DNA of 64,000 bases, taken from Azolla caroliniana. Taxonomy: Eukaryota; Plantae; Polypodiophyta. A model generated the notes under the pieces. That model saw only the letters and a program-made list of their open reading frames with translations, was not told the DNA's origin and searched no databases. This document shows positions 2,357 to 62,371 of the stretch, in pieces. The translations under genes were made by a program, and so were the position numbers. The first letter of the stretch is position 1. Each line of letters begins with the position of its first letter. The stretch spans positions 17,546,001 to 17,610,000 of the forward strand of contig JBHGNT010000006.1 in the NCBI GenBank assembly GCA_043228905.1, in the 5' to 3' direction.

Positions 2357-4547
2357 ATTTTGTGCCAATTGATCATGGCATTGGATCTCTTGCAAAATAC
2401 ATCTAAACCACTTTCTAGCTTTTGTAGATTTTCCAAGTCCCCTTGTAGGTAGACTACGGTTTCATCTGCAAATTCTATCTCCAGGGGGCTTCAGTGAGAA
2501 TGCGGCACACGAAGACCACGTAGGTTTGGTTGTCGCAAGTTGAGAAAACTAGAGAGTGCTTTGGCGTATAAAAAAAAAAGGATGGAGCCAGTGGGCATCC
2601 CTGTCGTACAGACCGCGATAGTCAGAAAAACGGGCCCCTTTCATCTGCTAATGAAACACAACTACATGCATTCCTATAAAGTCCTGCAATGTCTTGGATC
2701 CATCACTCCTGAAAGCCGAGTTTCCCCATCACACTTTCTAGAAAGTTCCAGCATACCCTATCATATGGTTTCCCAAAATCTAGGAGCACCACAACTACCT
2801 TGTTGTTGGTACGCTTGGCAAGGGCTACTGCTTCCCAAAATGAGAAAAGGTTGTCTAGGATGCTCCGATTTCTAACGAAACCAATTTGGGACGGATGAAT
2901 GACTTGAGGGAGAAGTGATGTTAAGCAACATGCTGCGGTTTTTGTAAGCAAGTTATAGACAGTATTGAGAAGAGTTATGGGCCACCACTACTGATATCAT
3001 TGGCACTCCCACCACTTTTAGGAATGAGATGTATCATCCCCTATCCAAATTCCTCCGCCATGTTTCCAAAGGTGATGATCTCCTCATATGCTTGGAGGAG
3101 GTCGCAAAGGCACATGAAAAAGTGAGGACTGAGGCCATCGATTCCGGGGCAACTATCGGCATCCAAATCGGAGAGGGCCTCCCATATCTCGATATTTGAT
3201 AAGGGACGCATGAGCCATGTATTCATTTCCTTTGTGACTTTCTCCGGTATGCTCTGGAGGATAATATATTTTCATGTGTCTTCCCATGTGGCCATATTAT
3301 CTTCGGTAAGTTGTCACCTGTAGTAACTTGTGGCAATATTCCTCATTTTGTCGCCATCCTCAGTGGTCATTCCATCCTCTCGGTTGAGGCTACGCATCAT
3401 TGTTCTAGCGTGCCTCGGTCCCTTGGATTAGAAGAATTCCTTCATGGGTTTGTCTCCTACTCGAATCCATTGAGCCATGCTTCCATGAAACTCCATGTCA
3501 TAGATTTTCTTTTCCGCCATGATGAGTTCATGTTTGGCCATGAAAACCTATCCCGCGATCCAACTACATGTCGGATATCTTTGTGGGAGTCGTTGTAAGG
3601 CTATTAGTTCCCATTTTTTCCTCTACCGCTTTTCCTGAGCATCCTTGCATCTGGTCTTGACAATCTTGTGTAGTAGAGTTGAAGCTCTTGTTAATTTAGC
3701 TATAATTTTGTCAGATGCTAATGAGGCATTGACAGGTAATGACCCTTGGCTGGCAAGTTGTTCCTTCACCTCTGTGATTGTGTAGATAATGTGCGGGATT
3801 CGAGGTTGAAATGGGCCCCACTTTCGGTTTAATTGAAAGTGACCAATTACCGGGTAATGGTCGGAGAAATTCATGCCTGGAGGTATGTGACACCACCCTT
3901 CCTTCGGTTCTAGGGCCTCGCCTACATAAATTCATTCAATGTGAGATAGGGTGGGTCCACTATTTCGCCCATCTGATCGGGAGAATAAGAGTGAGTCCCT
4001 TTTTCGTTGGAAGTTGTCTGAGTGCCATAGATCTCTCAGATTAAGATGTAGACATAACTTCTCCCATTGTTTTCGTTCCCTTCCTTGTAGAACTATGAGC
4101 TTGTTGATAGAGCTATCATGAAGGGATTCGATCATATTAAAATCCCCTCCAATGTTGCCCTTTCTGTGCTGTTATTTGGAGCATAAACATTCATAAAACT
4201 CCAGCGTTGCCCTGGGATGGCCAACGTGCAAAAATGTGCCCTAACAGGTATAAGTGATTCTTGATGTATTAAGGCTTGGGCTAGATGTTCCCGAATTAAA
4301 GTGCAAATACCACCATGATTTCCATCCTCCCCTATTGTTGGCTCCCAAATTGTTCGCCATGATCATGGTAGAAGGTCTCTGACTTCCTTTGAACGAGTAC
4401 TATCAAGGTGGTGTTTGTGCAACATGATTATGTCAGCTACACCCCTAATATATATTCCTCAAAATCCCTTCTCAATTTCCATCTATTTTGTTGGTCTAGT
4501 CGACTCCTGAGCCCTTGGACGTTCCATGTTACAATTTTCATACTCAT
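2357..4547 (-). pseudogene. LINE ORF2 (AP endonuclease + RT), fragmented
   Basis: Starts MSMKIVTWNVQGL; SDHYPV endonuclease motif; CPGIDGL; SQIGFVRNRSILDN; LLDFGKPYDRV; QGCPL; FADE. Confidence 0.88.
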
Positions 4548-10619: not shown

Positions 10620-11391
10620 TGGTATGAGACTGCGAGGGTTAGAATATCCTCTACTGCCGATCTCAACACAAGCGAACCCTAACTTTCAGACAAGGTAAGA
10701 TGAAAACGAGAAATGGACATAGGCATGGGAAGCTCGCTTGGGACTCAGAAGCTCAATAAGAGCAACTACGCATCTTGGTCATACAAGATGCACCAATATC
10801 TGTTGGGATATCGATATTGGAGTTATGTTGAAGGAGCAAATGATGTAGCACTAGATTCGACACACAGGAATTTCCAGCTTGGGAACAATCGGCAAGCAGA
10901 GTTCTCTACTGCTTCACATACAGTGTTGGTGAGCACCTGCTCAGCTACATCCGGGACACAAAGATGCCTAAGGAGGCTTGGGGAAATCTAAAGAAGATTT
11001 TCGCTGCAAGCACCACAACTAGAAAGCTTCAGCTCAGGCAGGAGCTCAACAATGTTCGATAAAGAGACATGTCGGTGGCTGACTACACCTCCCTGATCAA
11101 GGACATCTGCGACTCTCTCGCCTCCACCAACGTGACCTTTAAAGAGGAAAAAATGGTGCAGGTCTGTCTTGGAGTATTGGCGCAAAAGTTCGGACAATAC
11201 GTCGTCATTCTTTGAGTTGCAATCGATGCTTCTGGTTCAAGAGAACCACGCGTGTGCATCGACAAATATGCACACCAACAACAAGATGTTGCACACGAAG
11301 GAAGATAGAGGTGGCCCACAGGAGCAAAACAGAAGGCATAATCGAAATGCCGACAACAATTCCAGACCCTCCAGAAACAGGGGGAGTCAAG

Positions 11392-12021
11392 TCTTGGGAG
11401 ATAGGTCCCTCCGGATGGGAAGGGAGAAGAACAGTGCCGACGAACAAACTCGGCCGAGGCCGACAGGCCTCGGCCGAACCGGTATGAACCGGATGGGGAG
11501 TACCCGACTGCGGAGAGCCGGATGGTGTAGGCCCGGTATGAACCGGAGGAAGAGACATATTCGTAAATATGTTTCTGAGAGCCCATCGAGGCTACATTTG
11601 TAAATAGCCGAAAAGTCATATTAGTATAAATATGACTTAGGGCAAACTTTTAGTGTGTGTCGTTTTGTTGTTGTCATTCTTCCTTGTTGGTGCAAGAAGG
11701 AGAGAGAGAGCGTAACTGTACAGAGAGAGAGAGAGAGAGAGAGACGAGGTCGTTGCCTCTGTTGTAACCGCCGCCTGTGGCGAAGATCTGAGAGCACGAG
11801 GTCATTGCCTCAGTGAACTCACTGTTGTATATTCCTACATAGTGACAGTTTGCAGCCTGTGGGCTGCCGTGGTTTTTTACCCTATTTTGGGGTTTTCCAC
11901 GTAAACCTCCTGTGTACCATTTCTCTCCTTTGTGTCCAATCTCATCACCTGTTTTTCTGTGTATGAAAAGAATCTCGGTTGTGGCCGAGCGTCGGACATA
12001 AGGAACGTCAAGTTCTCGACA
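11392..12021 (+). repeat. 5' LTR of Copia C (starts TC, mutated from TG)
   Basis: Direct repeat of 16109-16724; contains a (GA)n tract. Confidence 0.95.
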
Positions 12022-12051
12022 AGTGGTATCAGAGCGAAATCAACACAGAAA

Positions 12052-15000
12052 ATGGACGAATCGTTTGGCGGCATGTTCAAGCTCACCGGCTCCAACTATT
12101 CAGTGTGGAAGTCGAAGATGAGGGACATGCTCGTGGTTAAAGACCTCTGGCTGCCGGTTCAGTTCGGGGACAAGAGACCGGACAAAATCGACGCCGTGAT
12201 ATGGGAGGTGATGCACATGAAGATAACGGCGTACAGACGGTGCTTCATCGACATGAGCCTGTACAACAACTTCAATGAAGAGAGCAAGGCTCATGAGCTC
12301 TGGGAGAAGATCGGCATAATGTTCCAGAACAAAAATGCTGTCAATCAGGTGTCGGTATTCCGGAAGCTAGTAAGACTCCGGTACCAAGATGGCTCCAGCA
12401 TGGCGGAGCATATGAATGCCTTCTAGGGGCTGATCCACCATGCAACGTTATTGGAAGTACCTCTTGCCGATGAGGTCCTAGCGCTACTCCTGCTCGGTTC
12501 CCTCCCGGATAGCTGGGAGACGTTGGTTGTCACTTTGGGCAACGCCGGGCCGGAAGGAAAACGGTTATCCCTAGCAAGAGTAAAGTCGAGCTTGCTAGAT
12601 GAGGAGGCTCGTCGGAAAGACAAAGATACGAGCTCCGACTCCAAAGCGCTCCTTACCGAATCGGAACACGGAAGACATAGAAACCGTAGTCCCCAGAACC
12701 GGGAGAAGTTGGGGACACGGTCAAAGTCAAGGGGGAGGCCTACTTGCTTCTATTGCGGCAAGCCGGGACACTTCCAAAAGAACTGTCGGCATTTCCGTAA
12801 AGACAAGGAAACCGACGGTACCGATTCAAAGCAAACCCCAAACCGGAACGGTAAAGACCGGAGGGGGCCGGACCGGAAGGGAACGACTGCAATTGCGGCA
12901 AGTGAAGAGGAGTTGATGCTCATCACCGAGGAGAGTGAGATAAACCATGCCGGCGACGAGATAACCTGGGTGGTAGACTCCGGAGCATCGTTCCACCTTA
13001 CCCCGGACCGGAAATGCTTCTCATCCTACTCAGCCGGTGATCACGGTTGTGTCCGGATGGGGAATGAAGGAACATGCCGAATTGTCGGCATAGGAGATGC
13101 GTGGCTGACAACACCAACCGGATGCAAGTTGTTGTTGAAGGATGTTCGACATGTTCCGGAAGTTCGTCTGAACCTGATATCAGCCGGTCGGCTAGATGAT
13201 GAAGGCTACACGGGTAGCATCCGGAACGGTATCATGAAGTTCAGCAAAGGGAGCCTGATTGTGGCTCGGGCCCGGAAGGTAAACACACTGTACCTGATGA
13301 ATGCCCGGTTATGTCCGGAAGAAGTGAACGTGGCTTCCGACACTACCGGTGAGCTGTGGCACAAGAGGCTATGTCACATTAGTGAGAAGGGGATGAAGAG
13401 GCTTGGAGACGACAACCTCATTCCAGTGAAGAACGTGCACTTAGAGAAGTGCACTGATTGTCTGGCCGGTAAGCAGAACCGGACCTCCTTCCGACCAAGG
13501 CCACCGATGAGACGTAATGCACCACTGGAGTTGGTGCATACGGATGTTTGTCAAGTAGACACGAAGTCACATGCCGGAGCGCAGTACTTCGTGACGTTCA
13601 TAGATGACCACAGCCGGAAGCTGTGGGCCACACCGCTGAAGACGAAGAATCAGGTGTTATCAGTCTTCAAAGAGCTCCACGCGAGAGTGGAAAGAGAAAC
13701 CGGCCGGAAGCTAAAGGCGGTTCGAGCAGATAACGGAGGAGAGTACCGGGGGCAGTTCGAGGAGTACTGCCGCTCGAAGGGAATCCGGCTCGAATTTACC
13801 ATGCCGAAGACGCCGGAACTAAACGGACTGGCCGAGAGGATGAACCGGACCATAATGGAGAGGGTCCGGAGTATGCTAGCGCATGCAAAACTACCCAAGA
13901 AGTTTTGGGCTGAGGCACTGTCGACGGCGACATATGTGATAAACAGATCACCCTCAGTACCCTTGGACGGAGACACGCCACAGAGAGTATGGACCGGTAA
14001 GGAAGTGTCCTACCGGCATCTGAGAGTGTTCGGGTGTCTCGCATACGTGCATGTAGCAAAGGACCGGAGAGGAAAGTTAGATCCAAAGACCCGGCCATGC
14101 ATATTCCTCGGTTACGGTGACGATGAGTTCGGCTACCGAATGTGGGACCCGGTCGACAAGAAGGTATTCCGGAGTCGAGATATTATCTTCATGGAGGACA
14201 AGACGCTCGCCGACTGGGAGTCGGAGAAGAAGATAATGAACTCCGAGTCGACCGGTAAGGATAGACTCTACAATGAGCAGACCCAACCGGCAAGAGACCG
14301 GTTAGCACTCGAGGAACCAGCCGGTTACGGTGAGGATACCGAACCGACAGAAGAAGAAGTAGAGGAAGCTGAGACCGGAACCGGTCAAGACCCCGAATCG
14401 GATTCGGATGAAGAGCAAATGGAGGAACCGGTTACCGAAGCCCGAAGACGTAGATATCCTCTCAGAGAGAGAAGGGCGCCCCGGAGATTTCCAGATGCAG
14501 AGCATGTCCTGCTGACCGATGAGGGGGAGCCGGAAAGCTTCGAAGAAGCGAAAGAAGACACCCACAGCCGAAAATGGTTAAGTGCCATGCAGGATGAGAT
14601 GGATTCCCTGCATGAGAACCATACGTACGAATTGGTGGTGCTGCCGAAAGGAAAGCGGGCACTCCGAAACAAGTGGGTGTTCAAGTTGAAACCGGGAGAT
14701 GCCGGCAACCCCCCGAGATACAAAGCCAGGATCGTGGTGAAGGGGTTCCAGCAGAAGAAGGGCGTGGATTTCGACGAAATATTCGCACCGGTAGTAAAGA
14801 TGACCTCCATCCGGACAGTGCTGAGTATAGCAGCAAGCATGGATCTCGAGGTAGAGCAACTGGACGTGAAGACGACATTCCTTCACGGCGACCTCGAAGA
14901 GGAAATCTACATGCAGCAACCGGAAGGATTTGTGGAGAAAGGGAAGGAGCACCTGGTATGTCGGTTGAAGAAGAGCCTGTACGGACTGAAGCAGGCTCCC

Positions 15001-16098
15001 TGGCAATGGTACCGGAAGTTCGACTCCTTCATGACCGATCAAGGGTACCATAAGACGCAGGCCGATCACTGCGTGTTCGTGAAGAAGTTCGAAGGAGGGG
15101 ACTTCCTGATACTTCTCCTGTATGTGGATGACATGTTGATCGTCGGACGAGACCAAGGCAAAATACGGATGCTGAAGAAGGCTCTCAACCGGACCTTCTC
15201 AATGAAAGACTTGGGTCCGGCAAGACAGATGTTGGGGATGCACATCATTCGGGACCGGTCAGTGAAGCAATTATGGCTGTCACAGGAGAAGTATGTGACA
15301 AAGGTGCTTCACCGGTTCAACATGTCAGATGCAAAACCGGTTGGATCGACACTTCCGGAAAACTGCAAGTTGTCCGGCTACCAAAGCCCGAAGACAAAAG
15401 GAGAGAAGGCAGATATGATGAAGATTCCATATGCCTCTGTCGTCGGGAGCTTGATGTACGCAATGGTTTGTACCCGACCGGACATTGGATACGCAGTCGG
15501 AGTGGTGAGTCGGTTCATGAGTAATCCCGGCAAGGAGCATTGGAACGCGGTCAAATGGATACTCCGGTATTTGAAGGGCACTTCAAATATGTGTCTCCGA
15601 TTCGGCTCCGGGAAACCTCAACTGGACGGTTTCACCGATTCGGACATGTCGGCTGATGTGGATACCAGCCGGTCTACATCCGGGTATGTGATGACATATG
15701 CAGGGGGAGCTGTTTCGTGGCAGTCGAGGCTGCAGAAGACGGTTGCATTGTCAACCACAGAGGCGGAGTACATGGCGGCTGTAGAAGCCGGCAAGGAAAT
15801 ATTATGGATGAAGGACTTCATCGGAGAGCTCGGTATCCGGCAAGAGGAATACCAACTCTACTGCGACAGTCAAAGTGCCATCCACCTTGCTAAGAATGCG
15901 GCCTACCATTCCCGGACGAAGCATATCCAGTGGAGGTATCACTGGATCCGGGAAAGGGTAGATGACTAGGAGTTCGCACTGACGAAGATCCACACGGCCG
16001 AGAACGGGTCAGATATGCTGACCAAAGTGCTGACACCCGACAAGCTGGACGCATGCCGGAAGAGGATCGGGCTGGAAAGACACCCCATGCCGGAGTGA
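12052..16098 (+). pseudogene. gag-pol: Copia C gag-pol polyprotein, single frame with two in-frame TAG stops (12424, 15967)
   Basis: CFYCGKPGHFQKNC knuckle, VDSGAS protease, HHCC/DDE integrase, YVDD RT, RNase H TDSD; ORFs 11932-12426 and 12451-15969 share a frame. Confidence 0.95.
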
Positions 16099-16108
16099 AG
16101 GGGGAGTT

Positions 16109-16724
16109 TGTTGGGAGACAGGTCCCTCCGGATGGGAAGGGAGAAGAACAGTGCCGACGAACAAACTCGGCCGAGGCCGAGGCCGAACCGGTATGAACCG
16201 GATGGGGAGTACCCGACTGCGGAGAGCCGGATGGTGTAGGCCCGGTATGAACCAGAGGAAGAGACATATTCGTAAATATGTTTCTGAGAGCCCATCGAGG
16301 CTACATTTGTAAATAGCCGAAAAGTCAGATTAGTATAAATATGACTTAGGGCAAACTTTTAGTGTGTGTCGTTTTGTTGTTGTCATTCTTCCTTGTTGGT
16401 GCAAGAAGAAGAGAGAGCGCGTAACTGTAGAGAGAGAGAGAGAGAGACGAGGTCGTTGCCTCTGTTGTAACCGCTGCCTGTGGCGAAGATCTAAGAGCAC
16501 GAGGTCGTTGCCTCGGTGAACTCACTGTTGTATATTCCTACATAGTGACAGTTTGCAGCCTGTGGGTTGCCGTGGTTTTTTACCCTATTTTGGGGTTTTC
16601 CACGTAAACCTCCTATGTACCATTTCTCTCCTTTGTGTCGCGTCTCATCACCTGTTTTTCTGTGTATGAAAAGAATCTCGGTTGTGGCCGAGCGTCGGAC
16701 ATAAGGATTGTCGAGTTCTCGACA
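16109..16724 (+). repeat. 3' LTR of Copia C
   Basis: tgttgggagac...ctcgaca followed by TSD tcaag. Confidence 0.95.
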
Positions 16725-22329: not shown

Positions 22330-22780
22330 TGTCAAGAATAGTACTAAAGCAGAGATGGAATTAGTACTAAAGAAGAGCAGTACTATTAGTACTAACGGGA
22401 CGGGACTGCGTAAGATTCCCGAGAGAGGAAGTGAGAAGAGGAGAGAGAGAGAGAGAGAGATAACGAGAATGAGAGAGAGAGAAGGATGATGACAACAACT
22501 CTTATATTATGTGAAAAGATAAGTACAAATCGGCTAAGAGGCTTAAGACTGGCGTTGAACCAATTTGGTTCAAAACAATGCCTTGTGCCTCCTTTTATAG
22601 TGTTTTTAGGAATAATCCTGAAGCTTCTAGAATGTTCTAGAGAGATCTGGAATATACATCAATTTTCTATGATAAAGCATAAATGAAAATAATATCTTAC
22701 AAATTACAATTCATAGTCTAATGGTAAGAGCTCGACCCATGTAGCATAAGTTCATGGGTTCAAGTCTTGCCATATCATGA
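22330..22780 (-). repeat. 3' LTR of the Tcn1 element (terminal dinucleotide and PPT deleted)
   Basis: Direct repeat of 27462-27910 with about ten differences; fused directly to the chromodomain. Confidence 0.93.
22714..22772 (+). promoter_or_regulatory. tRNA-like Pol III A-box/B-box module in the Tcn1 3' LTR (antisense to element)
   Basis: tagtctaatggt ... ggttcaagtc with tRNA spacing. Confidence 0.65.
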
Positions 22781-25700
22781 TCCTGTGCATTGGCAACATG
22801 CTCGACGGGTTCCCAAGTACGTTCGCTCGGACTATAACTGAGCCAATCGACCAAGTAATAATGTTTGTTGCGAACAAGTTTGGAATCGAGGATGGCAACA
22901 ACTTCATACTCCGGGCCGACGTCCAACTCCAACGAGGGCGGCGGTGGTGTCACACGATCAGGAATGGTGTTTGCTTTATAAGGTTCAAGAAGAGAACAAT
23001 GGAAAACTGGATGTATCTGAAGCTGTGGAGGGAGATCAAGGTAGAATGTGACATCATTAATCTTACCCGTAATATGGAAAGGACCGAGTCGTGGATAATC
23101 CAACTTGTCACACGATCGAGTAGTCTTGATGTGACGACGTAAGAGCCATACTCGATCTCCGATGGCAAAAGAGGAGGGAATCCGATGACGATCCGCATAA
23201 GTCTTCTGTGTGTTGAGCATGACGAAGGTGAGTAGAGAGATCCATCTGGATCTTGTGTAGCCTCTCCAAATGATCCTCAGCACGAGGGTTGGTAGGTAGC
23301 TCCGGGGTGTCGATCACCGACCAACGAGGATGGAAACCGGTATAAGCGAAAAATGGGGAGACTCGAATCGAGTGAATAGCATTATTATACGCAAACTCCG
23401 CAAAGTGGAGAATCTCGGCCCAATCGTCCTGTTGATAACTCAGGAAACACCGGAGATATTGCTCCAGCGTTTGGTTTGTTCGTTCCGCCTGCCCGTCGGT
23501 CTGAGGATGGTAGCCGGAGGAGAGATTGCAGGAGACCTTGAGCATCTTGAAGAGATGTTGCCAAAATTTGGAGACAAATTGCGGTCCTCGGTCACTGATG
23601 ATACTGTCTGGGAGGCCATGATGTCGAAATACCTCACGCATAACAAGGGCGGTGGTTTCCTCGCTAGTGATGGCTTTAGTACACGGCACACAATGTGCCA
23701 TCTTCATATATCAATCGACGACGGTTAGGATAGCATCGAACCCCTTCGAGACCGGCAGAACTGTGATAAAATCAAGACAAATAGACTGCCACGGCTTACT
23801 TGGAATCGGTAAGGGTTCCAACAAGCCATATGAATGGTGTCGTGGCATCTTTGCTCGGCAGCAAGCATCACAGGTCCGAACGTAGTCATCGACAAAACGG
23901 CGCATGTGGGGCCACCAAAAAGATCGTTGCACTAGCTCCAACGTCTTAGTACTACCGAAATGTCCCGCCGTATGGGTGTCGTGACAATGTTGGACAATTT
24001 GAAGGTGACAGGAGCAATCGGGGACATATACGCGCTTTTTGAAGAATAACAAACCATCATGATATTCGAATTGTCGGTAGTCAATACCTGGTTGTTGAGA
24101 CTGAGAACAGGATGCCCGAGAAGTATCAATGTGCGCCAGGATGTCTTGAGCAAAACTATCCGTCTTCAAGGTTGCACGTATGTCATCGGTAATCCGTGAA
24201 TCCATCGGGGTGTGAAAAATCCGCGTCGTGTGCAATCGTGTTGGTTCCAAGATTACTTGCTTTTGATTATCAAATGTTGCATCACCAGGACGAGGTGCAA
24301 GATATGAACGCTGTGATAGTGCATCTGCTTTTCCTTGCTGCTTCCCCGGTCGATATGTGATTTTGAAGTCGAAACGCGTGAGGACTTGCGCCCACCGAGC
24401 TTGCCGTCGATTTAGTACGCGAGCGTTCTGAAAATAAGTAAGATTTTTATGATTGCTAAAGACAATGGCCTGATGTGGAGAGCCCTCTAAGAAATGCCGC
24501 CATTGTACAAATGAATCCACGATGGCTAATAACTCCTTGTCATGTATTTCGTAGTTGATTTCTGCGACATCGAATTTGTGCAAATGGAAAGCCACCGGAT
24601 GCAACTCTTCTTTATCTCCTTGTTCAGAAAGGATGCTACCGAGGGCGAAATCTGATGCGTCGGCCTCCATGATGAATGGTTTGCTTGTATCCACATGAGC
24701 TAGAATCGGTGTTGATGTAAAGGCTTTCTTAAGATGCCGAAAAGCCATATTTGCGTCTATGGACCAAAGAAATGCTTGGCCCTTCTTCGTAAGTTGTGTG
24801 AGAGGTAAAATAATATTCGAGTAATCCTGTATAAACTTACGGTAGAAGTTAGCAAAACCTAGAAAACATTGTACATCTCGTACCGACCATGGAATTTGCC
24901 ACTCTAGTACAGTTTGGATTTTAGCTGGATCCATGGCGATGCCCTTTGAGGAGATGACGTAGCCTAGAAATTCCACTTGCTTGCAGTCAAAGCTACATTT
25001 TTCTAGCTTGGCATAAAGACCATTCTCACGGAGTCGCTTTAGTACTAATAGTACATGAGAATCGTGCTCTTCCTAGGTCTTCGAATAAATCAATAGATCA
25101 TCCAGATAAATGATCAAACAGATATCCAAGAGGTCTCTTAATATATCATTTGCCATGTGTTGGAAGACTGCGGGTGCATTGGTTAGGCCGAACGGCATAA
25201 CAGTATACTCGAAATGCCCATACCGTGTGCGAAAGGCGGTCTTCCATTCATCTCCCGGTCGGATCCGCACGAGGTTATACGCTCCTTGTAGGTCGATTTT
25301 AGTAAAAAACTTGGCACCATTAACTCGCTCTAAAAGACTTGATATAAGAGGAAGTGCATACCTATTCCGGATGGTGACTTTATTCAATCCGTGGTAATCA
25401 ACGACAAGACAAAGTGAGCCATCTTTCTTCTTGACAAAGAAGATGGGTGCACCGGCCGGAGATTTCGAATGACGGATGAACCCGCTTGCCAAGTTCTCCT
25501 CTATGTAGGCTCGAAGGACTTCTAACTCGGTGGGTGATAGGTTGTAAATTGGTTCCCATGGTGGCTCGGTTCCTGGTTGTAAATCGATGGGACAGTCATA
25601 AGGACGGTGATGAGGAAGGGTACCGGCTTTTACCTTGTCAAATACATCGGCATAAGGATGATATTTTGCTGGAAGTTGTACTGAGGAGTCCTTCTTAATA

Positions 25701-26266
25701 GTGTTGGAAGGATGTACTGATATTGCAAATAGGAACATTGCCTCCTTGGGTCCTTCTTCGCGTAGTTGATGGAGTGAAATGGTCGAAACTCGGTGAGTTG
25801 GTTCTTGGGGTGGTCGATATCGGACTTCTCTTGTTCTCCAATCTATGGTTGGATTATGTAATTCAAACCAAGGTAATCCTAGGACAATGGGATGCTCTAG
25901 ACTGCTAATTATATTAAAGGATATTACACACACAAAACTACCTAGGACAACTTGAATGGGTTCTGATTCTTCTACAATATTCCCGGAAGCAATGGGACGA
26001 CCATCAATGACTACTACAGATGCGGGACAAGGAAGTTTTCTTAAGGATATCTGAGAAGCTTGGGCAAAATTTCGATCCATGAAACAGGAATTAGCTCCGG
26101 AATCTAAAAGTGCTAGGATGGGTATTAGGGGAGTACTTTTAGTACTAACAATGACTTGGGCTAGGAACACATTGCTAACTTGCTTGGAAGAAATGGAACC
26201 ACTAATGGGTTGTACAGATCTAGGGCTGTTGTCCAACCAAACGGCTCCTATTTTGGATGGACTCAA
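22781..26266 (-). pseudogene. pol: Tcn1 pol (PR, RT, RNase H, INT, chromodomain) with stops and a frameshift
   Basis: LLDSGA, YLDD, EADASD, SDRGPQF, GPF, YEVVAILD..YLVDW..ERTWEP. Confidence 0.93.
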
Positions 26267-26433
26267 TCGTTTAACTCTTCATCTAATTGACTAAGGATTT
26301 CAAATTTATTTGAGATACTTGGGCTATTAGTACTATGAATACTATCAAACACTCTATTGGTACTATTAATACTATCAGACACTCCTAAGGGAAGAATTGA
26401 CTCGGGTTTAGTACAGGCTACAATTTGATTTAC

Positions 26434-27420
26434 CTATCTTCTTGGCCTATGGGGACAATTGATTGCGATATGCCCTGGTCCACCGCAATAAAGACATAAT
26501 CGATTTGCACGTCGTCGTTGCTTTTCTTCTTCCGATAACGGGCCGTGTCGACGCATGGTATCGATCTCCATCGGTGTCGAAGTATTTGCTTGAGGTATAT
26601 CTCGTGCAAACGGTTTAGCCACGACTACGGCGTAAGCGGGCTCCGGCCTAGCGCGTGGTATCTGTCATTGACGTTCCGAATGTCGTTCGAAAAGGCGGTT
26701 GTCACATCAGACCGCTCGACTGATTGCCTCCATAAGAGACTTTGGTTCTTCGGGGAAAGTTAGAAGTAGATCTTTGACATCATTTCGCAGGCCATAGCGA
26801 AACGGCTCCATTAGTGCTTGATCATCCCAGGGTATGTCTGAAGCGAGTAGGCGGAAATCCGCCGCGTAGGCAGAGGCTGGACGATCGCCTTGACGCAATC
26901 GCCGGATCTTGTTGATCGTCGTCCTGATGTTGTCGGTGTCTCCAAAGCAGGCTTTCAACTCACTAATAAAATCTTCAAAGTTATTAAGCAAGGGCGATTG
27001 TTTTTCTAGAAGCGGAGAGAACCATGTTAAGTCTGAGCCGCTAAGCAATGTGCCTATTAAGCCGACTCGGGATGCATCAGTGGGGTATCGGGAAGGATGC
27101 ATTTGGAGAACTAATCGTACCTGATTAAGGAATCCCCTGAATTGCGATCGCGTTCCATCAAATTTCACAGGAAGTCCAATCTTCGGCTCTTTATGAAATC
27201 CTTGGGGACTTGATCCTTGTTGTTGCAATGCCTCTTCGAGTTGTTGCACCCGTAACGCTAACTCCCCATGTTGTTGTTGTGTTTGTTTCTTTTCTAGAGC
27301 GATTTGTTGCAGATCCCCTATCAGCCGTTGGTTTTCTTGTTCCAAGGCAACAAATTTTTCTTTTAAGCACTGTAGCTCGGAGAAAACGGATTGATATTCC
27401 TGGGCGCTAACAGTAGCCAT
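26434..27420 (-). pseudogene. gag: Tcn1 gag (coiled coil, capsid, CCHC knuckle) with internal stop
   Basis: KFDGTRSQFRGF, LRQG, PMEID, CLYCGGPGHIAINC. Confidence 0.9.
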
Positions 27421-27448
27421 AGTATAGGGAAAAGGGTAGGAGGAGGAA

Positions 27449-27459
27449 AATTGGTTCAA
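27449..27459 (-). promoter_or_regulatory. Self-priming PBS (TTGAACCAATT)
   Basis: 11-nt perfect complement of LTR sequence 27693-27683 near the predicted transcription start. Confidence 0.8.
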
Positions 27460-27461
27460 AT

Positions 27462-27910
27462 TGTCAGGAATAGTACTAAAGCAGAGATGGAATTAGTACT
27501 AAAGAAGAGCAGTACTATTAGTACTAAGGGGACGGGACTACGTAAGATTCCCGAGAGAGGAAGTGAGAAGAGGAGAGAGAGAGAGAGATAACGAGAATGA
27601 GAGAGAGAGAAGGATGATGACAACAACTCTTATATTATGTGAAAAGATAAGTATAAATCGGCTAAGAGGCTTAAGACTGACGTTGAACCAATTTGGTTCA
27701 AAACAATGCCTTGTGCCTCCTTTTATAGTGCTTTTAGGAATAATCCTGAAGCTTCTAGAATGTTCTAGAGAGATCTGAAATATACATCAATTTTCTATGA
27801 TAAAGCATAAATGAAAATAATATCTTACAAATTACAATTCATAGTCTAATGGTAAGAGCTCGACCCATGTAGCATAAGGTCATGGGTTCGAGTCTTGCCA
27901 TATCATGACA
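27462..27910 (-). repeat. 5' LTR of the Tcn1 element
   Basis: TGTCA..TGACA termini; TATA box on the minus strand at 27727-27721. Confidence 0.95.
27842..27900 (+). promoter_or_regulatory. tRNA-like Pol III A-box/B-box module in the Tcn1 5' LTR (antisense to element)
   Basis: tagtctaatggt ... aggt ... ggttcgagtc. Confidence 0.7.
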
Positions 27911-37040: not shown

Positions 37041-37949
37041 TGTCGTAGTGTAATTCGCACACTACGTGAAAAATTACATTTTTGGTCTCTCCGGATAGGA
37101 CATGGAGTACCCGGTGAGAACCGGAAGAAGGAACCGGTAAGGACCGAAACCGGTAAGGAGACGGCAAGAGCCGGATGAAGAAGGCCGGAGAGAGTCGGTG
37201 AGAAACGAACGAAGAGATTAGTAAGGAGGTCCTGGTAAGAACCGGACAAAGAAAACTAGCAAGCACCGGATGAAGCAGAACCGGAAAGAGCCGGATGAAG
37301 AAGGCCGGTGAGAGTCTCTCACCAGATGAAGAGACATATTTGTAAATAGAAGAAAGTATAAAAAATATATATATTACTTGCATAGGGCAAGATTCGAACC
37401 TTGCACCTCCATGTTAATAATGTTAAGCCTTATCGTTATACTAACGTATTATGAATTTTAAATTTATACTAAACTTTATCCCATGTAAAATTTCTAGACA
37501 TGCATGGTACAAAAAGTTATTCATGCAGAGACACTCGAGTTAAAAGAAAAGATGAGATAGAAAGTTAATCATGCACATGCAGTGTGCAGGAAAACTAAAG
37601 ATAGGAAAAACATGATGCTTGCATGTGATAAACTTGGACTCTTCCAACACTATATAAGGAAGAGAGAAAGATGTATAGAGGTTGTTGATTATTTTACAAG
37701 GATTTTTATCAATCTAATATATTCGTGGGATTCACGATTTTTTTTCCATCTATTTCTCTCTTACATTCTAAGTATCAATTAATACACTATACTCGTGGGA
37801 TTCACGAGTTTCATATCTTCTTTCAAATATTTCTCTTTCTTGCAATCGATTCATAAGGAGCCTTATCTGATATTCTTCTTTCTCCTAGTCCAAAACCTCA
37901 GCGGTTCCCACCCGACTCACGAAACGATCCGGAGCCGAAAGGCACGACA
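37041..37949 (+). repeat. Solo LTR related to the gag-only element at 58672 (909 bp)
   Basis: tgtcgtagtgta...gaaaggcacgaca termini shared with 58672-59460; 4-bp TSD acgt; extra purine-rich repeat block 37090-37335. Confidence 0.92.
37381..37443 (-). promoter_or_regulatory. tRNA-like A-box/B-box module in solo LTR (antisense)
   Basis: Minus strand tagtataacgataag...aggtgcaaggttcgaatcttgccctatg; A box degenerate, B box perfect. Confidence 0.6.
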
Positions 37950-56424: not shown

Positions 56425-58774
56425 GAACTTCTCGAATATTCCGAAGAGTGAGCCAAAGCTTGATTTTCTCAATGCGAGAAGGATCAATTTCAACTCCTCG
56501 TTCGGTTATGAGATGTCCTAGATAAGTAATTGATTTCTTGAAGAACTCACATTTTGAGATCTTCTCATAAAACTGTTTGTCACGCAATGTTTGTAAAACA
56601 AAGCGGACATGTCTAGCATGTTCTTTTAATGTATGGCTATAAACTAAAATATCATCCAAGAAAATAACGACAAATTTTCCAAGTTGTTCTCGGAAAATGT
56701 CATTCATTTCTTGTTGAAAAGTAGCCAGAGCATTGGTCAAACCAAAAGGCATAACCAAAAACTCGTAATGGCCATAGCGCGTATGAAATGCCGTTTTAGA
56801 AACATCATCCTAACTTATTCGTATTTAATGGTAGCCAGTACGGAGATCAAGTTTCGTAAAATACCGAGCTCCCTGGAGACGGTCAATTAGATCGTAAGCC
56901 CGGGGCAATGGGTACGAATTCTTGATCGTCACTTTATTCAAGCATCGGTAATTAATACACATACGCCATGTGCCCTCTTTCTTTTTTACCAAGAGAACTG
57001 GTGCATCCCATGGAGATTTACTATAACGTATATAACCCATTCGTAAATAGTCCTTGAGTTGCTTAGATACCTCATCTTCTTCGGATCGACTTAAGCGATA
57101 CGGAGGTATACTTATTGGTGCAACACCAAGTACAATATCTATACGATGGTCTATATTACGTTTAGGAGGTAACCCATTAGGTAGTTCACTTGGAAAAACA
57201 TCATGAAAATCATTTAAGATTTCATCAAGTTGTTGTTGTTCAAAATATGTTAATTGAACCGGGACATTATCGATATTGTAAACGTGAATGTCCGGATCAA
57301 GTACTCAATAAAATAACGTAGAATAAGACAACTCGGATTTTTATGAACATGAGGAAACAATCGAGAGGGATTGTTTTTTGATACATTGAATAAAATGCGT
57401 ACAATCGTTCAGTACAAAAGAAATGGAATGGCGAACCCAATCAATAAATAAAGAAGAGTTTCTATTATAAAACCAGGGATAACCCAGTATTACATCGGTG
57501 GAAGATTCATTACATGGAAGTCTACTTCCTCTATATAAGTATCAATAGAAATTCCTAATGAATGAATCGCCTCGTTGATATATTGTACTCTTCCATCAAC
57601 CAAGTGCATCGTATAGGTGTGATCACTTACGGTGGGTTGGATTCCCCATATCTGAACCAAACGATCATTCACAAAATTGTGTGAGCTTCCCAAATCAAAT
57701 AAAAATTGTACAGGAGATCCCTTGATATACCCGTTTGCACGTAGTAAATCATTGGGACCCAATACATAGTGAGGGAAAGAACATTGACAATTACTTAAAT
57801 GATGTGTATAGACCTGAAGGACATTAGGAATCTGACCTTTATGGTCTGCAGCTTTAGCTTTGTTGTCGTGATCTTTTCGTTGGAGCTTTCAACATTGATC
57901 TTTTGTATGACCCTTCTTTTTGTGGAATACGCAAAAAGGATGTTGTCGCTTACAATCGCGATCCATGAATTCGTTCGGTGTCTTGCGTTTCCCAACGAAT
58001 TGCGATTGCTTAGTCCCGGGCGCTTCATTGGGTTGGTTGTGCTCCTTCTTCGAAGTGCGTTGATAGCGAAGAACTATTTCAACGACGTCTTCGAAGGATT
58101 TTGGATCCTTATCGTGCACTATCCAGTGATAGTCCGAATTGGGGATGCCATTGACAAAACAAGCTATTAACCAATTGTCCCCTTCTAGACCCGATTTTTG
58201 GATTTGGGTTCTAGCATGGTGAACATAGCCTTCTAGCAAGGAAAATTTCTTGCTAGAGAGGTTCATTAAAGCTTGTGCTACCTCGGCTCGAGAGGGAGGT
58301 TGCAGAAATTGGCCCTTAAAAACCGTGACAAAATCTGTCAAGGTATCGAGCAATTTCCCCATAGTACGAAGCCCACGCCACTGTTACCGGCCGGCAAAGG
58401 AGTCCAGAGTGGGAAACGGAGAGCTAATTAAGTAGTAGGAATGTGGTTGTAATTAAGCTATGAGTGTGGACGGACGAACCGGAATCGGTATGCCATTCCG
58501 GATCCGGACCGATCCCGAACAGGTGCGGATGGCACCGTTTTGTAATACAGACCGGAAACCTATTTAAAGGCCCGGATACAATGTAATAGGGAGCTGTTAA
58601 TTAATGAAAGCTTAAGCGTTGTTATCTCTCTGTGTTAATTGCCGTTCTGTCTTAATTGTTATATCTTACGCTGTCGTAGTGTATTTCGTACACTACGTGA
58701 AAAAGTAAAAATAATATAACCGATTTAATTACATATAAATAAATAAAATAATATATCAAGATATTTATCACGTG

Positions 58775-58837
58775 CATAGGGCAAGATTTGAACCCTGTAC
58801 CTCCACGTAGCCAAACCTCAACTTTACCATTATACTA
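58775..58837 (-). promoter_or_regulatory. tRNA-like A-box/B-box module in the 5' LTR of the gag-only element (antisense)
   Basis: Minus strand tagtataatggtaaag...aggtacagggttcaaatcttgccctatg, then T4 at 58748-58745. Confidence 0.7.
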
Positions 58838-59498
58838 CCTTATCTTTAGTGTTCTATAAATAGATTTAATAACTATAAGTGCTTTATTTGCGCCTACCTT
58901 TATTAAAAGGTAAATCGTGCATTTTTAGAGTGTGTGAATATTTTATAGAAAAAACGCAAGCAACTAAAAAGTGACTCGTGCACATCTAGCGTGCATGAGC
59001 ACTATATTTAGCAAATAAAAGCAAGGATTAGAAAAGCATCACATGCACATTTAGTGTGCATGAACATATTAGAAAAAAAGCATGTAGCTATGCTTAGTCT
59101 CTCCCATCACTACATAAGGATGGGGAGCACAATGTAATAGGTGTGTGAAATATTTGGAAATTGGATATATTTCCGAAAACACCAACCGATTAATATAATC
59201 GTGGGATTCACGAAAATAATATAATCTATACTTGTGGGATTCACAAGTTTCTTATATATTTCTTTCAATCTAAATACATATTCTTATCTAAATATTGATT
59301 AATCGAATACAATACACTCGTGGGATTCACGAGATTTCTATCTCTCTTTCTAATAATCTATTCATTACTAGCCTCATCTCATATTCTTCTTTCTCCTAGT
59401 CCAAAACCTCGGCGGTTCCCACCCGACTCACGCAACGATCCGGAGCCGAAAGGCACGACACAGTTGGTGAACCCGACGCGAAGGCGGGTGGCAAGGAG

Positions 59499-60881
59499 AT
59501 GGAGAATCAACAAGAGACAATGAGCATAACGATGATGATGATGTTCGAGCGGATGCTACAAGAACAACGAGTGATGTCGGAGATCACGGGGGCAGTAAAG
59601 CGGCTCGTACAACGAAACGGACAATTCGACGGAAAGGATGTGTCACGCTATCTACGTGACTACAAGGCGGAGATGATACGATGTGGGATACCGGAAGGAT
59701 TGCAAGTGACATCCTTCAATCGGGTGGCCACGGATGAGCTACAAGAGAGAATCCACAAGATACGGCAACAAAACTCGACATGGGGGTCATTCGAAGAAGC
59801 TTTACGAGAGGCATATGATTACAAGAGATCAAAGGGACAAGATCGGCGAAAATTCGACGAATGGGTGGCATCGGAGAAGACCCACCGAAGTGCAACACAA
59901 GCATTCCTAGAGTTCGAGCATCGTCTTGCTCAACTCTCGGAGCGGGAACAACGATTGGTGGGAGAAGATAAAGTCCTAATGTTCGTAAAATCGATCGATC
60001 GAAAAGAAAGGATGGACATCGGGATCGAACTCGAAGACGATGAAGGTACGAATGGTCTTACTGAAGATTGGGCCGAAGTCCAAAGGGTATGCCGGAGACA
60101 TGATGAGAGGAAGATGAGAATCTTGTCAACGACATGGCCGATGAAGGATGGTCGATTGAAGACAAACGATGGAGCCGATATGAAGGCCGAAATACAACAT
60201 GATGGTCCGACGGAAGAGGGTGTAAAACACGCTACCCTCTTGTCTTGCGAAAGAACAATGACAAAGGATAAGGCCGATAACCCAAGTGTAGAAGAAGATT
60301 TCAGAATACAAGTGTCCGAAACATCGGGTGAAAAAGGGGTAAGCATAATTGATGCAGTGAAAGAGAGCAAAGAGGACTTGATTGAGGAGGTCGCCACGAA
60401 AGATGACATCGAATCGAAGGTGGCTATGGACGAATCAACGACGGATGGCCATATCGAGACTTCCCCACCACTGATTCTAGAGACTCCGGCGGTTGCGTTC
60501 GAAAGGCAACGTGAGACCGAAGAGACGGAAGGTGGCGGAGAGAAAACAAAGGTCGAAGTCGATGCATACAACGGAGAGATAGCCGAGAATATGGCTATGG
60601 GTGAAACAATGGAGGATGATAATACCGAGGATTCCTACCCATTAATTCTAGAGACTTCGGCGGTTGTGTCCGAGAACCAACGTGAGACCGGAGAGACGGG
60701 AGGTGGCAGCAAGAAAGGTAAAGTCGGAAGCCGGTTTGGATGGAAGGTGATCCGGACGGGATTCCGATCCGAAAGAAAGCCGAACCAGGTAAAAGAGGAT
60801 TCGACCCGAAAGAAAGCCGAACCGAAAGGAAGAGAATTCGGCCGAAAGACGACACAAACGAAAGCCGAACCGGACGAATGA
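59499..60881 (+). CDS. gag: Gag-like protein, 460 aa: Phygy-type capsid region plus acidic repeated tail
   Basis: GQFDGKDVSRYLRDYKAEM..VLMFVKSID..GLTEDWAEVQRVCRR aligns with GRFSGKDATSYLASYRAEM..VLLFVKSVD..GLTADWAAVKRVCGR; open frame; no CCHC knuckle. Confidence 0.85.
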   Translation: MENQQETMSITMMMMFERMLQEQRVMSEITGAVKRLVQRNGQFDGKDVSRYLRDYKAEMIRCGIPEGLQVTSFNRVATDELQERIHKIRQQNSTWGSFEEALREAYDYKRSKGQDRRKFDEWVASEKTHRSATQAFLEFEHRLAQLSEREQRLVGEDKVLMFVKSIDRKERMDIGIELEDDEGTNGLTEDWAEVQRVCRRHDERKMRILSTTWPMKDGRLKTNDGADMKAEIQHDGPTEEGVKHATLLSCERTMTKDKADNPSVEEDFRIQVSETSGEKGVSIIDAVKESKEDLIEEVATKDDIESKVAMDESTTDGHIETSPPLILETPAVAFERQRETEETEGGGEKTKVEVDAYNGEIAENMAMGETMEDDNTEDSYPLILETSAVVSENQRETGETGGGSKKGKVGSRFGWKVIRTGFRSERKPNQVKEDSTRKKAEPKGREFGRKTTQTKAEPDE

Positions 60882-61603
60882 GGATTCGGCCGAAAGACGA
60901 CCCGAAAGAAAGCCGACCCGAAAAGGGGTCGACTCGGTCAAAACCGATCGATCGAGTCTGACTTGGCCGAACGCGAATATGGATGGAAGCCGACCTAGCC
61001 GAAAGCCAATCGGACGAGACCGATCCGGAAAGAAGCTAATCCGACTCAACCGAAGGTTGGACCGGTCGAGGCTGGTGAAAACGAGGAAAAGAAAGCCAAC
61101 CAAAACCAAAACCGATAGATCGAAACCGGGTTGGAAGGAGACCAACTCAATCGAAACCGAACAACCGATTCCGATTCGGCCGAATACGAATCCGATCGGA
61201 AGCCGATCAAACCGAAAGTCGATCGGACGAGAGCAATCTGGAAAAAAGTCAAGGTTGATGAAGACAAGAAAGAGGCTAGTAAAAGACACTACCACGAATG
61301 ACAAGGGCCAAGAATATGACGAGAGAGAACAAAGAATATGGTGGATCGGATGGCGACAATGGTTCGGGTGGAAAGAATGGGTCTACTCAAAATGGAGAGA
61401 CAAAGTTGACATAGCGGGACAAACGGAGGATGAAGGGGAGACAACGAGCATCGGCAACTTCGGCACATACCGGAGGATGTGCGGGTTCGGAGGGGGCGAG
61501 TGTCGTAGTGTATTTCGTACACTACGTGAAAAAGTAAAAATAATATAACCGATTTAATTACATATAAATAAATAAAATAATATATCAAGATATTTATCAC
61601 GTG

Positions 61604-61666
61604 CATAGGGCAAGATTTGAACCCTGTACCTCCACGTAGCCAAACCTCAACTTTACCATTATACTA
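61604..61666 (-). promoter_or_regulatory. tRNA-like A-box/B-box module in the 3' LTR of the gag-only element (antisense)
   Basis: Same sequence as 58775-58837. Confidence 0.7.
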
Positions 61667-62371
61667 CCTTATCTTTAGTGTTCTATAAATAGATTTAATA
61701 ACTATAAGTGCTTTATTTGCGCCTACCTTTATTAAAAGGTAAATCGTGCATTTTTAGAGTGTGTGAATATTTTATAGAAAAAACGCAAGCAACTAAAAAG
61801 TGACTCGTGCACATCTAGCGTGCATGAGCACTATATTTAGCAAATAAAAGCAAGGATTAGAAAAGCATCACATGCACATTTAGTGTGCATGAACATATTA
61901 GAAAAAAAGCATGTAGCTATGCTTAGTCTCTCCCATCACTACATAAGGATGGGGAGCACAATGTAATAGGTGTGTGAAATATTTGGAAATTGGATATATT
62001 TCCGAAAACACCAACCGATTAATATAATCGTGGGATTCACGAAAATAATATAATCTATACTTGTGGGATTCACAAGTTTCTTATATATTTCTTTCAATCT
62101 AAATACATATTCTTATCTAAATATTGATTAATCGAATACAATACACTCGTGGGATTCACGAGATTTCTATCTCTCTTTCTAATAATCTATTCATTACTAG
62201 CCTCATCTCATATTCTTCTTTCTCCTAGTCCAAAACCTCGGCGGTTCCCACCCGACTCACGCAACGATCCGGAGCCGAAAGGCACGACAACGCGTGTTAT
62301 GAAAGACGATCCTAATAAGTAACTTAACTAAGTCGGATTAAGCGTTGAAGTCTAATCCGGTTGCCGTAACA

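Follow-up and report, generated by a model that had tools for sequence, protein, structure and literature searches.

The window, by which we mean the whole 64-kb stretch of DNA that was analyzed, is a stack of LTR retrotransposons. One of these is a 5.6-kb gag-pol element on the minus strand, whose family is called Tcn1a in this report and whose LTRs each carry a short module with an A box and a B box as in Pol III promoters. The parts of this element were as follows.

22330 to 27910, minus strand: Tcn1a element with gag, PR, RT, RH, IN, and a chromodomain; LTRs at 27462-27910 and 22330-22780; 5-bp TSD
27448 to 27459, minus strand: self-priming site of 12 nt, the perfect complement of 27683-27694, the predicted R start
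27721 to 27727, minus strand: Pol II TATA box, facing away from the module
27748 to 27765, no strand assigned: HSE-like array, between the TATA box and the module
27842 to 27899, plus strand: module of the 5′ LTR, with the A box at 27842-27853, the B box at 27885-27894, and a tail to 27899
22714 to 22771, plus strand: module of the 3′ LTR, the second copy

Tcn1 has been described as a clade of self-priming chromoviruses of mosses and club-mosses (PMC6317226, excerpts). Since a self-priming site, a 5-bp TSD, and a chromodomain are marks of this clade and all three were found in the element at 22330-27910, it was taken to be Tcn1-like; the named homologues were three fungal proteins and one algal protein. 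The transcript start is palindromic (27683-27701), and the self-primer resembles a T-loop core and pairs weakly with the U3 module (-7.0 kcal/mol versus -12.0 kcal/mol for the PBS). At 22780, this copy lacks the last 2 nt of its 3′ LTR along with the PPT and the chromodomain end, yet its TSD is perfect. Positions 27748-27765 form a heat-shock-element-like array. The same array was present in a distant Tcn1 LTR (L084), and its occurrence in the U3 of Tcn1a suggests that transcription may be heat responsive; Physcomitrium RLG1, in contrast, is reported to be repressed by heat (PMC7466625).

The second group of hosts consists of Phygy-like elements.

58672 to 62289, plus strand: gag-only Phygy-like element; LTRs at 58672-59460 and 61501-62289; PBS at 59465-59482; 4-bp NCGN TSD
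58780 to 58837, minus strand: module of its 5′ LTR, a hairpin with the B box in the loop; first T4 at about 58745-58748
61609 to 61666, minus strand: module of its 3′ LTR
37041 to 37949, plus strand: solo Phygy-like LTR; 4-bp NCGN TSD
37386 to 37443, minus strand: module of the solo LTR, with G19 changed; T6 at about 37360-37365

Phygy elements are non-chromoviruses with an NCGN target preference and a 4-bp TSD (PMC6317226, excerpts), and the hosts in the window showed a 4-bp NCGN TSD, no chromodomain, and a tRNA primer site. With a length of 3.6 kb, LTRs identical at 789 of 789 positions, a single ORF of 472 codons, and no pol, the gag-only element is very young and was probably mobilized in trans. 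Its PBS (59465-59482) resembles RSV_PBS of Rfam and is taken to be of the tRNA-Trp type. Among named sequences, the RT relatives of the Phygy-like elements in the window came from liverworts, a fern, and Chara, from which the host is likely to be a moss or some other non-seed plant. A sequence-only reading of this DNA had listed three different LTR sequences with the module. The two Trp-group LTRs belong to related families (76% identical blocks), and therefore two lineages are represented rather than three independent ones.

The Phygy LTRs also contain repeated RY-like palindromes and 11-nt direct repeats (58990-59330 and 37500-37810), and one RY-like palindrome is the only other block common to the window Phygy LTRs and those of a distant relative, L023. 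A stretch of purine-rich repeats, about 200 to 250 nt long (37100-37335 in the window), separates the module from the LTR edge both in the solo LTR and in a second element from outside the window, L055, and is missing from the gag-only LTR. Similar purine-rich words occur in a Copia LTR at 11390-11560, which belongs to a young Copia element (11390-16724) with a pol ORF of 1180 codons and a single stop between gag and pol.

A strict scan for A plus B boxes returned five matches in the window, and these were the five modules that had been claimed; 60 shuffles averaged 0.017 matches, with never more than 1. The boxes stand at tRNA-like spacing, as in a type 2 Pol III promoter, with G10 variable in Tcn1a. 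The claimed T-loop geometry was recovered in all three distinct copies, with TTC starting at position 46. The claimed placement in U3, antisense and pointing outward, was also confirmed, in that the R start lies 33 nt downstream of the Tcn1 TATA box (27721-27727), the Tcn1a 5′ LTR module is antisense to the element and ends 11 nt inside the outer LTR edge, and in Phygy the TATA boxes are located 3′ to the modules. Two details required amendment. The AGGT variable loop said to be shared by all modules reads AGTT in the 22714 copy, and the oligo-T said to follow the Trp-group modules after 15 to 30 nt was found at +21 in the solo LTR and had to be corrected to +32 in the gag-only LTR. The expectation that the modules would be pseudo-tRNAs held: ARAGORN found no tRNAs over the window, and Rfam gave no tRNA match in the window or at any of the eight module loci tested, with both tRNA-like control loci matching. 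A functional tRNA gene was rejected since no cloverleaf with acceptor and anticodon stems could be formed; the modules are tRNA-derived A/B-box units and not tRNAs. Not every element in the window has the module; it was absent from both Copia elements, from a second chromovirus family, and from two further Phygy-like families.

A metagenome scan with a pattern made of both boxes and the tail returned 85 loci. Tcn1a LTRs accounted for 46 of these (41 distinct insertions) and Phygy LTRs for 8; the other 31 were tRNA- or SINE-like sequences of no relation to them (19 distinct). The moss-type loci listed by name (51) all come from one accession series and are thus not independent samples, and because the copies were selected on the boxes, their box columns prove nothing about conservation. 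Coding sequence adjoined the LTR in four Tcn1a loci and in two autonomous Phygy loci (L023 and L055), and the module was antisense in all six. Copies found without the pattern also carried the module; these comprised one Tcn1a copy and both of the Phygy LTR copies so found, the latter two being decayed, with damaged boxes. The Tcn1a LTR was present in 2605 to 4214 contigs in each of four DNA runs with four organism labels, and the module region was present in 795 contigs of a fifth run. In a single RNA run, 2 contigs matched the Tcn1a module region at a depth of about 3, which is no evidence either way.

A tRNA-derived SINE insertion with its own TSD and tail had been named among the findings that would overturn the proposal. 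A stray SINE insertion was rejected in favor of a fixed part of the LTR, since all 54 moss-type metagenome matches lay within sequence of these LTRs and 11 copies had no TSD-like repeat in common. Several copies have unusual outlines. L025 and L056 contain the module and the LTR end with only 2 to 13 nt of LTR upstream, a structure for which deletions, insertions, and retroposed Pol III transcripts are all possible explanations. L022, the same insertion as in L032 and L101, is a fold-back Tcn1a LTR end in which a copy of the inverted terminus and A-box side stands ahead of the module; this is probably a template-switch product. No pile-up of insertions was apparent before the module (foreign sequence upstream in 3 of 33 copies, with no pattern), and an upstream CAA motif was found at one of eight Phygy loci. 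Five loci (L072, L076, L077, L083, and L103) belong to a tRNA-like family of no relation to the two lineages, in which T-runs come after the same tail and no retrotransposon protein match lies nearby. Searches of viral and prokaryote collections with module or Tcn1 patterns gave nothing useful, and a looser tail pattern that returned 20 viral loci was discarded, 19 of these having annotated tRNA genes and the match falling on tRNA-Arg.

Plant tRNA genes need both an A box and a B box and end at short T-runs (PMC13578239, excerpts). Of 12 Phygy copies, 11 had the first run of at least four T's at +16 to +21 past the tail, and in the twelfth it stood at +32. T4 was found inside the unit in none of 12 copies, compared to all 11 upstream and all 12 downstream flanks of equal length. 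When the variable middle was shuffled alone, the P value for T4 avoidance was 0.06, and the avoidance is therefore taken as support rather than proof. The predicted Phygy RNA would be about 90 nt long. In Tcn1a, T4 was likewise missing inside the unit (0 of 41 copies versus 18 of 26 upstream flanks), and no terminator was found within the LTR: the first T4 stood at +44, +48, and +527 in three 3′-LTR copies and was absent from a fourth, and it ranged from +19 to +1189 in 37 flank-facing copies. From such sequence features, the module is a candidate live, outward-facing type 2 Pol III unit, tRNA derived and antisense in the U3 of both lineages, a reading that we hold to be evenly poised between right and wrong.

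The modules are also predicted to fold. According to the sequence-only reading, the anticodon-arm region does not pair; this is true of a cloverleaf only, as the predicted Tcn1a fold is a 20-bp rod with this region paired to the B-box arm.

27849 to 27901, plus strand: Tcn1a rod hairpin, about 20 bp predicted, with the 3′ half of the A box plus the D/anticodon region on one side of the stem and the B-box arm plus the tail on the other

The Tcn1a module is a near-perfect inverted repeat of 20 pairs with three single bulges, with z scores of -5.24 on the plus strand (the module strand) and -3.88 on the minus strand. Across 40 distinct rows of the alignment, 96% of cells were paired, with no compensatory (two-sided) change. 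In contigs not chosen by the pattern, a variant at a level of at least 10% was seen at 1 of 22 stem positions versus 15 of 30 other positions (Fisher P value = 0.0006, with columns that are not independent). The Phygy module forms a different fold, a 13-bp hairpin with the B box in the loop, for which 89% of cells were paired and five cells were changed on both sides, a count as high as in 1 of 500 shuffles; this covariation draws on few lineages, as the tree needs about two changes and 1 of 9 branches is supported. Single-copy z scores of the Phygy hairpin ranged from -0.2 to -3.3. The tail common to the two lineages forms the 3′ arm of the stem in each. Conserved hairpins, compensatory changes, and a T-run at a fixed place together point to either a transcript or a single-stranded structure.

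The second of these options has its own form, in which the hairpin is selected in the 3′ U3 of the genomic RNA or in minus-strand cDNA, for strand transfer, plus-strand start, dimerization, or end processing, and the boxes are relics of the source tRNA. Several observations fit such a replication hairpin. The conserved block of Tcn1a is the stem, and the unpaired 5′ half of its A box varies freely; the rod folds on both strands as RNA and also as DNA (-16.4 and -13.8 kcal/mol on its two strands) and starts 9 nt from the U3 edge; and the LTR of the distant Tcn1 element L084 has a terminal foldback of its own. Moreover, when the LTR of L023 was compared with other Phygy LTRs, the hairpin scored 40 to 54 and the A-box side only 16 to 22. 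On the other hand, the pairings differ between the two lineages, yet the box sequences and their spacing are the same, and a structure in the sense strand does not explain an antisense T-run at a fixed place or the lack of T4 inside the unit. The LTR starts of Tcn1-like families without a module also fold only weakly (z of -0.3 to -2.2), a further point against this reading. We consider a pure replication role unlikely, and a Pol III unit whose RNA is structured remains our preferred reading.

It had been expected that the boxes would be better kept than the flanking U3, and this was true in part. The module outlasts the rest of U3 between distant Phygy LTRs: the gag of L023 is only 29% identical to that of the gag-only element in the window, and the alignment of its LTR, which was itself found by the module pattern, to those of other Phygy elements was largely confined to the module (E of about 1e-9 to 1e-12), followed by a palindrome of 22 to 26 nt (E of 1e-4). 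In Tcn1a no such excess was seen, as those module bins that the pattern had not selected (mean minor-allele level, 0.066 to 0.081) were no better kept than other U3 promoter bins (0.058 to 0.11). A large Tcn1 subfamily has a changed A box: A replaced G10 in 19% of contig depth in X1 and in 51% in X12, and G replaced A14 in 7 to 8%. Variants of the Tcn1a module region were listed from 36 nt after its start to 40 nt before its end, and neither the blank over the B box nor the peak in depth on the B-box side was used as a measure of conservation; in the variant listing for the whole LTR, no B-box variant was among the 40 of 101 rows listed.

These data bear on the possibility that a tRNA or SINE head was inserted once and hitchhiked as a passive relic with families that were successful, with apparent conservation resulting from recent expansion, LTR recombination, and template-switch repair of a quasi-palindrome. 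The level of variation in the Tcn1a module relative to other promoter bins is consistent with this, as are the damaged boxes of the two unselected Phygy copies and the L022 fold-back, which is a case of template switching at this very LTR end. So too is the loss or decay of the module in sister families. Chara served as the root of an RT-RH tree that had unlabelled, liverwort, and Chara homologues as its reference set, and in this tree the module-less Phygy-like families of the window nested among relatives of L055 (support of 94/89, below the star threshold), and this nesting suggests that the module was lost in them. A passive relic would not be expected to persist where the remaining LTR no longer aligns, to keep boxes, hairpin, and T-run while its middle diverges, or to have its Phygy stem maintained by two-sided changes, and we regard this explanation as unlikely.

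Either exchange between a chromovirus and a non-chromovirus or independent capture had been proposed for the shared module, and exchange was somewhat favored by two observations. The tail that follows the B box in both lineages was found after none of about 206 B-box cores in the supplement on Helenus elements (families that are not independent, and line breaks in the text may hide a few); it was present in the 19 distinct unrelated metagenome sequences. In addition, L084, a distant Tcn1 element with 51 to 52% amino-acid identity, has a 3′ LTR homologous to that of Tcn1a (reached by 0 of 500 shuffles), and its outer edge was the best match to the Phygy module, ranking first of 2165 AT-rich windows, with none of 3000 shuffles reaching its mean score. 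This edge appears to hold a decayed Phygy-like module at the same place as in Tcn1a. The variable middles of Tcn1a and Phygy scored 0.9 against each other, within the range of -5 to +8 given by 15 families of no relation, and 0.9 was reached by 21 of 300 shuffles; outside the boxes, the two were no closer to each other than to unrelated tRNA-like sequences. A Phygy covariance model missed both the window Tcn1a copies and the L084 relic. Because L084 is one decayed copy and was first noticed by eye, a common origin of the Tcn1a and Phygy modules is taken as probable and no more firmly than that. A look-alike of the Phygy hairpin arms inside the gag of L078 was absent from L028 and from the window and was therefore treated as chance.

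Pol III promoters are known from other LTRs. Those of Cassandra, Helenus, and Ajax drive short nonautonomous elements in sense, and Helenus elements, which are noncoding and 311 to 1263 bp long, contain a tRNA-derived unit in sense that is proposed to transcribe the element (Kojima 2024, PMC10886601, excerpts). The same source expects autonomous elements to use Pol II and remarks, giving no detail, that tRNA-like parts are present in "not a few" LTRs of Repbase. The modules described here resemble those of Helenus and TRIMp3 in having tRNA-derived A and B boxes without tRNA function, fixed in both LTRs. Unlike those short noncoding TRIMs, the hosts here are a 5.6-kb gag-pol element, a 3.6-kb gag element, and the autonomous Phygy elements L023 and L055. 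In contrast to a sense unit, the module is antisense in all five window copies and at the six loci with adjoining coding sequence; the Helenus supplement contained 206 sense versus 13 antisense B cores, with Helenus-1_SMo in sense. The hosts here also differ from Helenus in having their own TATA boxes and in sharing the module between two Gypsy lineages. Membership in Helenus or TRIMp3 was rejected because the host elements are long and coding and the unit is antisense. What appears to be new is that two distant Gypsy lineages have, in their autonomous elements, a Pol III-type unit that is both antisense and conserved. The module was not described in the literature searched, most subscription papers and the Repbase annotations lying outside that search; the excerpts of Neumann 2019 (PMC6317226) mention no Pol III-type module for Tcn1 or Phygy LTRs, the terms "tRNA" and "Pol III" do not occur in PMC7466625, and PMC12789967 contained nothing relevant. 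A tRNA-like relic that may be present in the U3 of HIV-1 was not found in this literature either.

Yeast Ty3 offers a different parallel, as tRNA-complementary sequence in the U3 of this Gypsy genomic RNA serves as part of a bipartite PBS (PMC5371799, excerpts). If the module were a second, 3′ primer-binding segment of this type, the primer tRNA would pair through its T and D arms with the U3 of the genomic RNA. The orientation of the module would suit such pairing, as tRNA arms have their complement in the sense RNA, and the T-loop complement is exposed in the loop of the Phygy hairpin. The Ty3 segment matches its own primer tRNA, whereas the match is poor here: Phygy modules match the primer T stem, as read from the PBS, at 1 to 2 of 5 and 2 of 5 positions, and the other host, Tcn1a, primes itself and needs no tRNA primer. 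This makes a Ty3-type role highly improbable.

Two further systems concern what a Pol III unit in an LTR might do. In foamy viruses and BLV, hairpin units with A and B boxes are expressed by Pol III and processed to microRNAs in animals (Kincaid 2014, PMC3993851, excerpts). The Phygy module is similar in combining a candidate A/B-box Pol III unit, a hairpin, and a putative T terminator in the LTR of a Pol II-driven element; it differs in that a 13-bp stem would make a rather short microRNA precursor, no terminator is present in the Tcn1a LTR, and the units here are known from sequence. At cen1 of Schizosaccharomyces pombe, a tDNA barrier that needs both TFIIIC and the Pol III complex to be assembled blocks heterochromatin spread irrespective of orientation (Scott 2007, PMC2040200, excerpts); the cen1 barrier differs in being a host tRNA gene of yeast and not part of a mobile LTR, and no test of such a barrier in plants was found in the literature searched.

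The form preferred in the sequence-only reading was a platform or insulator that binds TFIIIC without making a meaningful transcript. The B-box side is the best-kept part of the module, and Tcn1a, which has no terminator, tolerates changes in its A box, both of which would suit such a platform. Barriers at TFIIIC sites in yeast, as reportedly described by Simms in 2008, were also counted in its favor. As originally stated, this proposal did not stand, since it does not account for the conserved hairpins, including a stem arm of Tcn1a that lies outside the boxes, for the two-sided changes of the Phygy stem, or for a T-run at a fixed place, and we now judge a bare TFIIIC platform very unlikely.

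A Pol III unit that is both bound and transcribed could work as follows. TFIIIC would bind the boxes and position TFIIIB on the stretch that separates the module from the Pol II promoter. In Phygy, the product of Pol III would be a structured RNA of about 90 nt. In Tcn1a, it would be an RNA headed by the rod and extended into flanking DNA from the 5′ LTR or, from the 3′ LTR, antisense into the PPT and the integrase end; the hairpin may stabilize or process the transcript. The likely benefit would be an occupied, open patch at the outer LTR edge that slows silencing from flanking heterochromatin. The cassette may have arisen once, moved between two Gypsy lineages, been refolded in Tcn1a, and been lost or decayed in sister families. 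An antisense unit in full-length, Pol II-driven elements would need another purpose than transcribing the element, such as insulation from silencing or a small regulatory RNA, and the modules offer a compact, high-copy test of plant Pol III barriers and of retrotransposon activity inside heterochromatin. They also point to an exchange of U3 parts between a chromovirus and a non-chromovirus. In a bolder form, which we think doubtful, the module would be a tradable antisilencing cassette that unites a portable heterochromatin barrier with a structured small RNA, in Tcn1a a Dicer-sized rod, acting as a decoy or small-RNA precursor, comparable to the Pol III RNAs of foamy viruses. If this were true, TFIIIC sites and outward transcripts would be spread over the host genome by thousands of copies. 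Runs with five organism labels contained Tcn1a in abundance, and the family could thereby supply those genomes with many TFIIIC sites.
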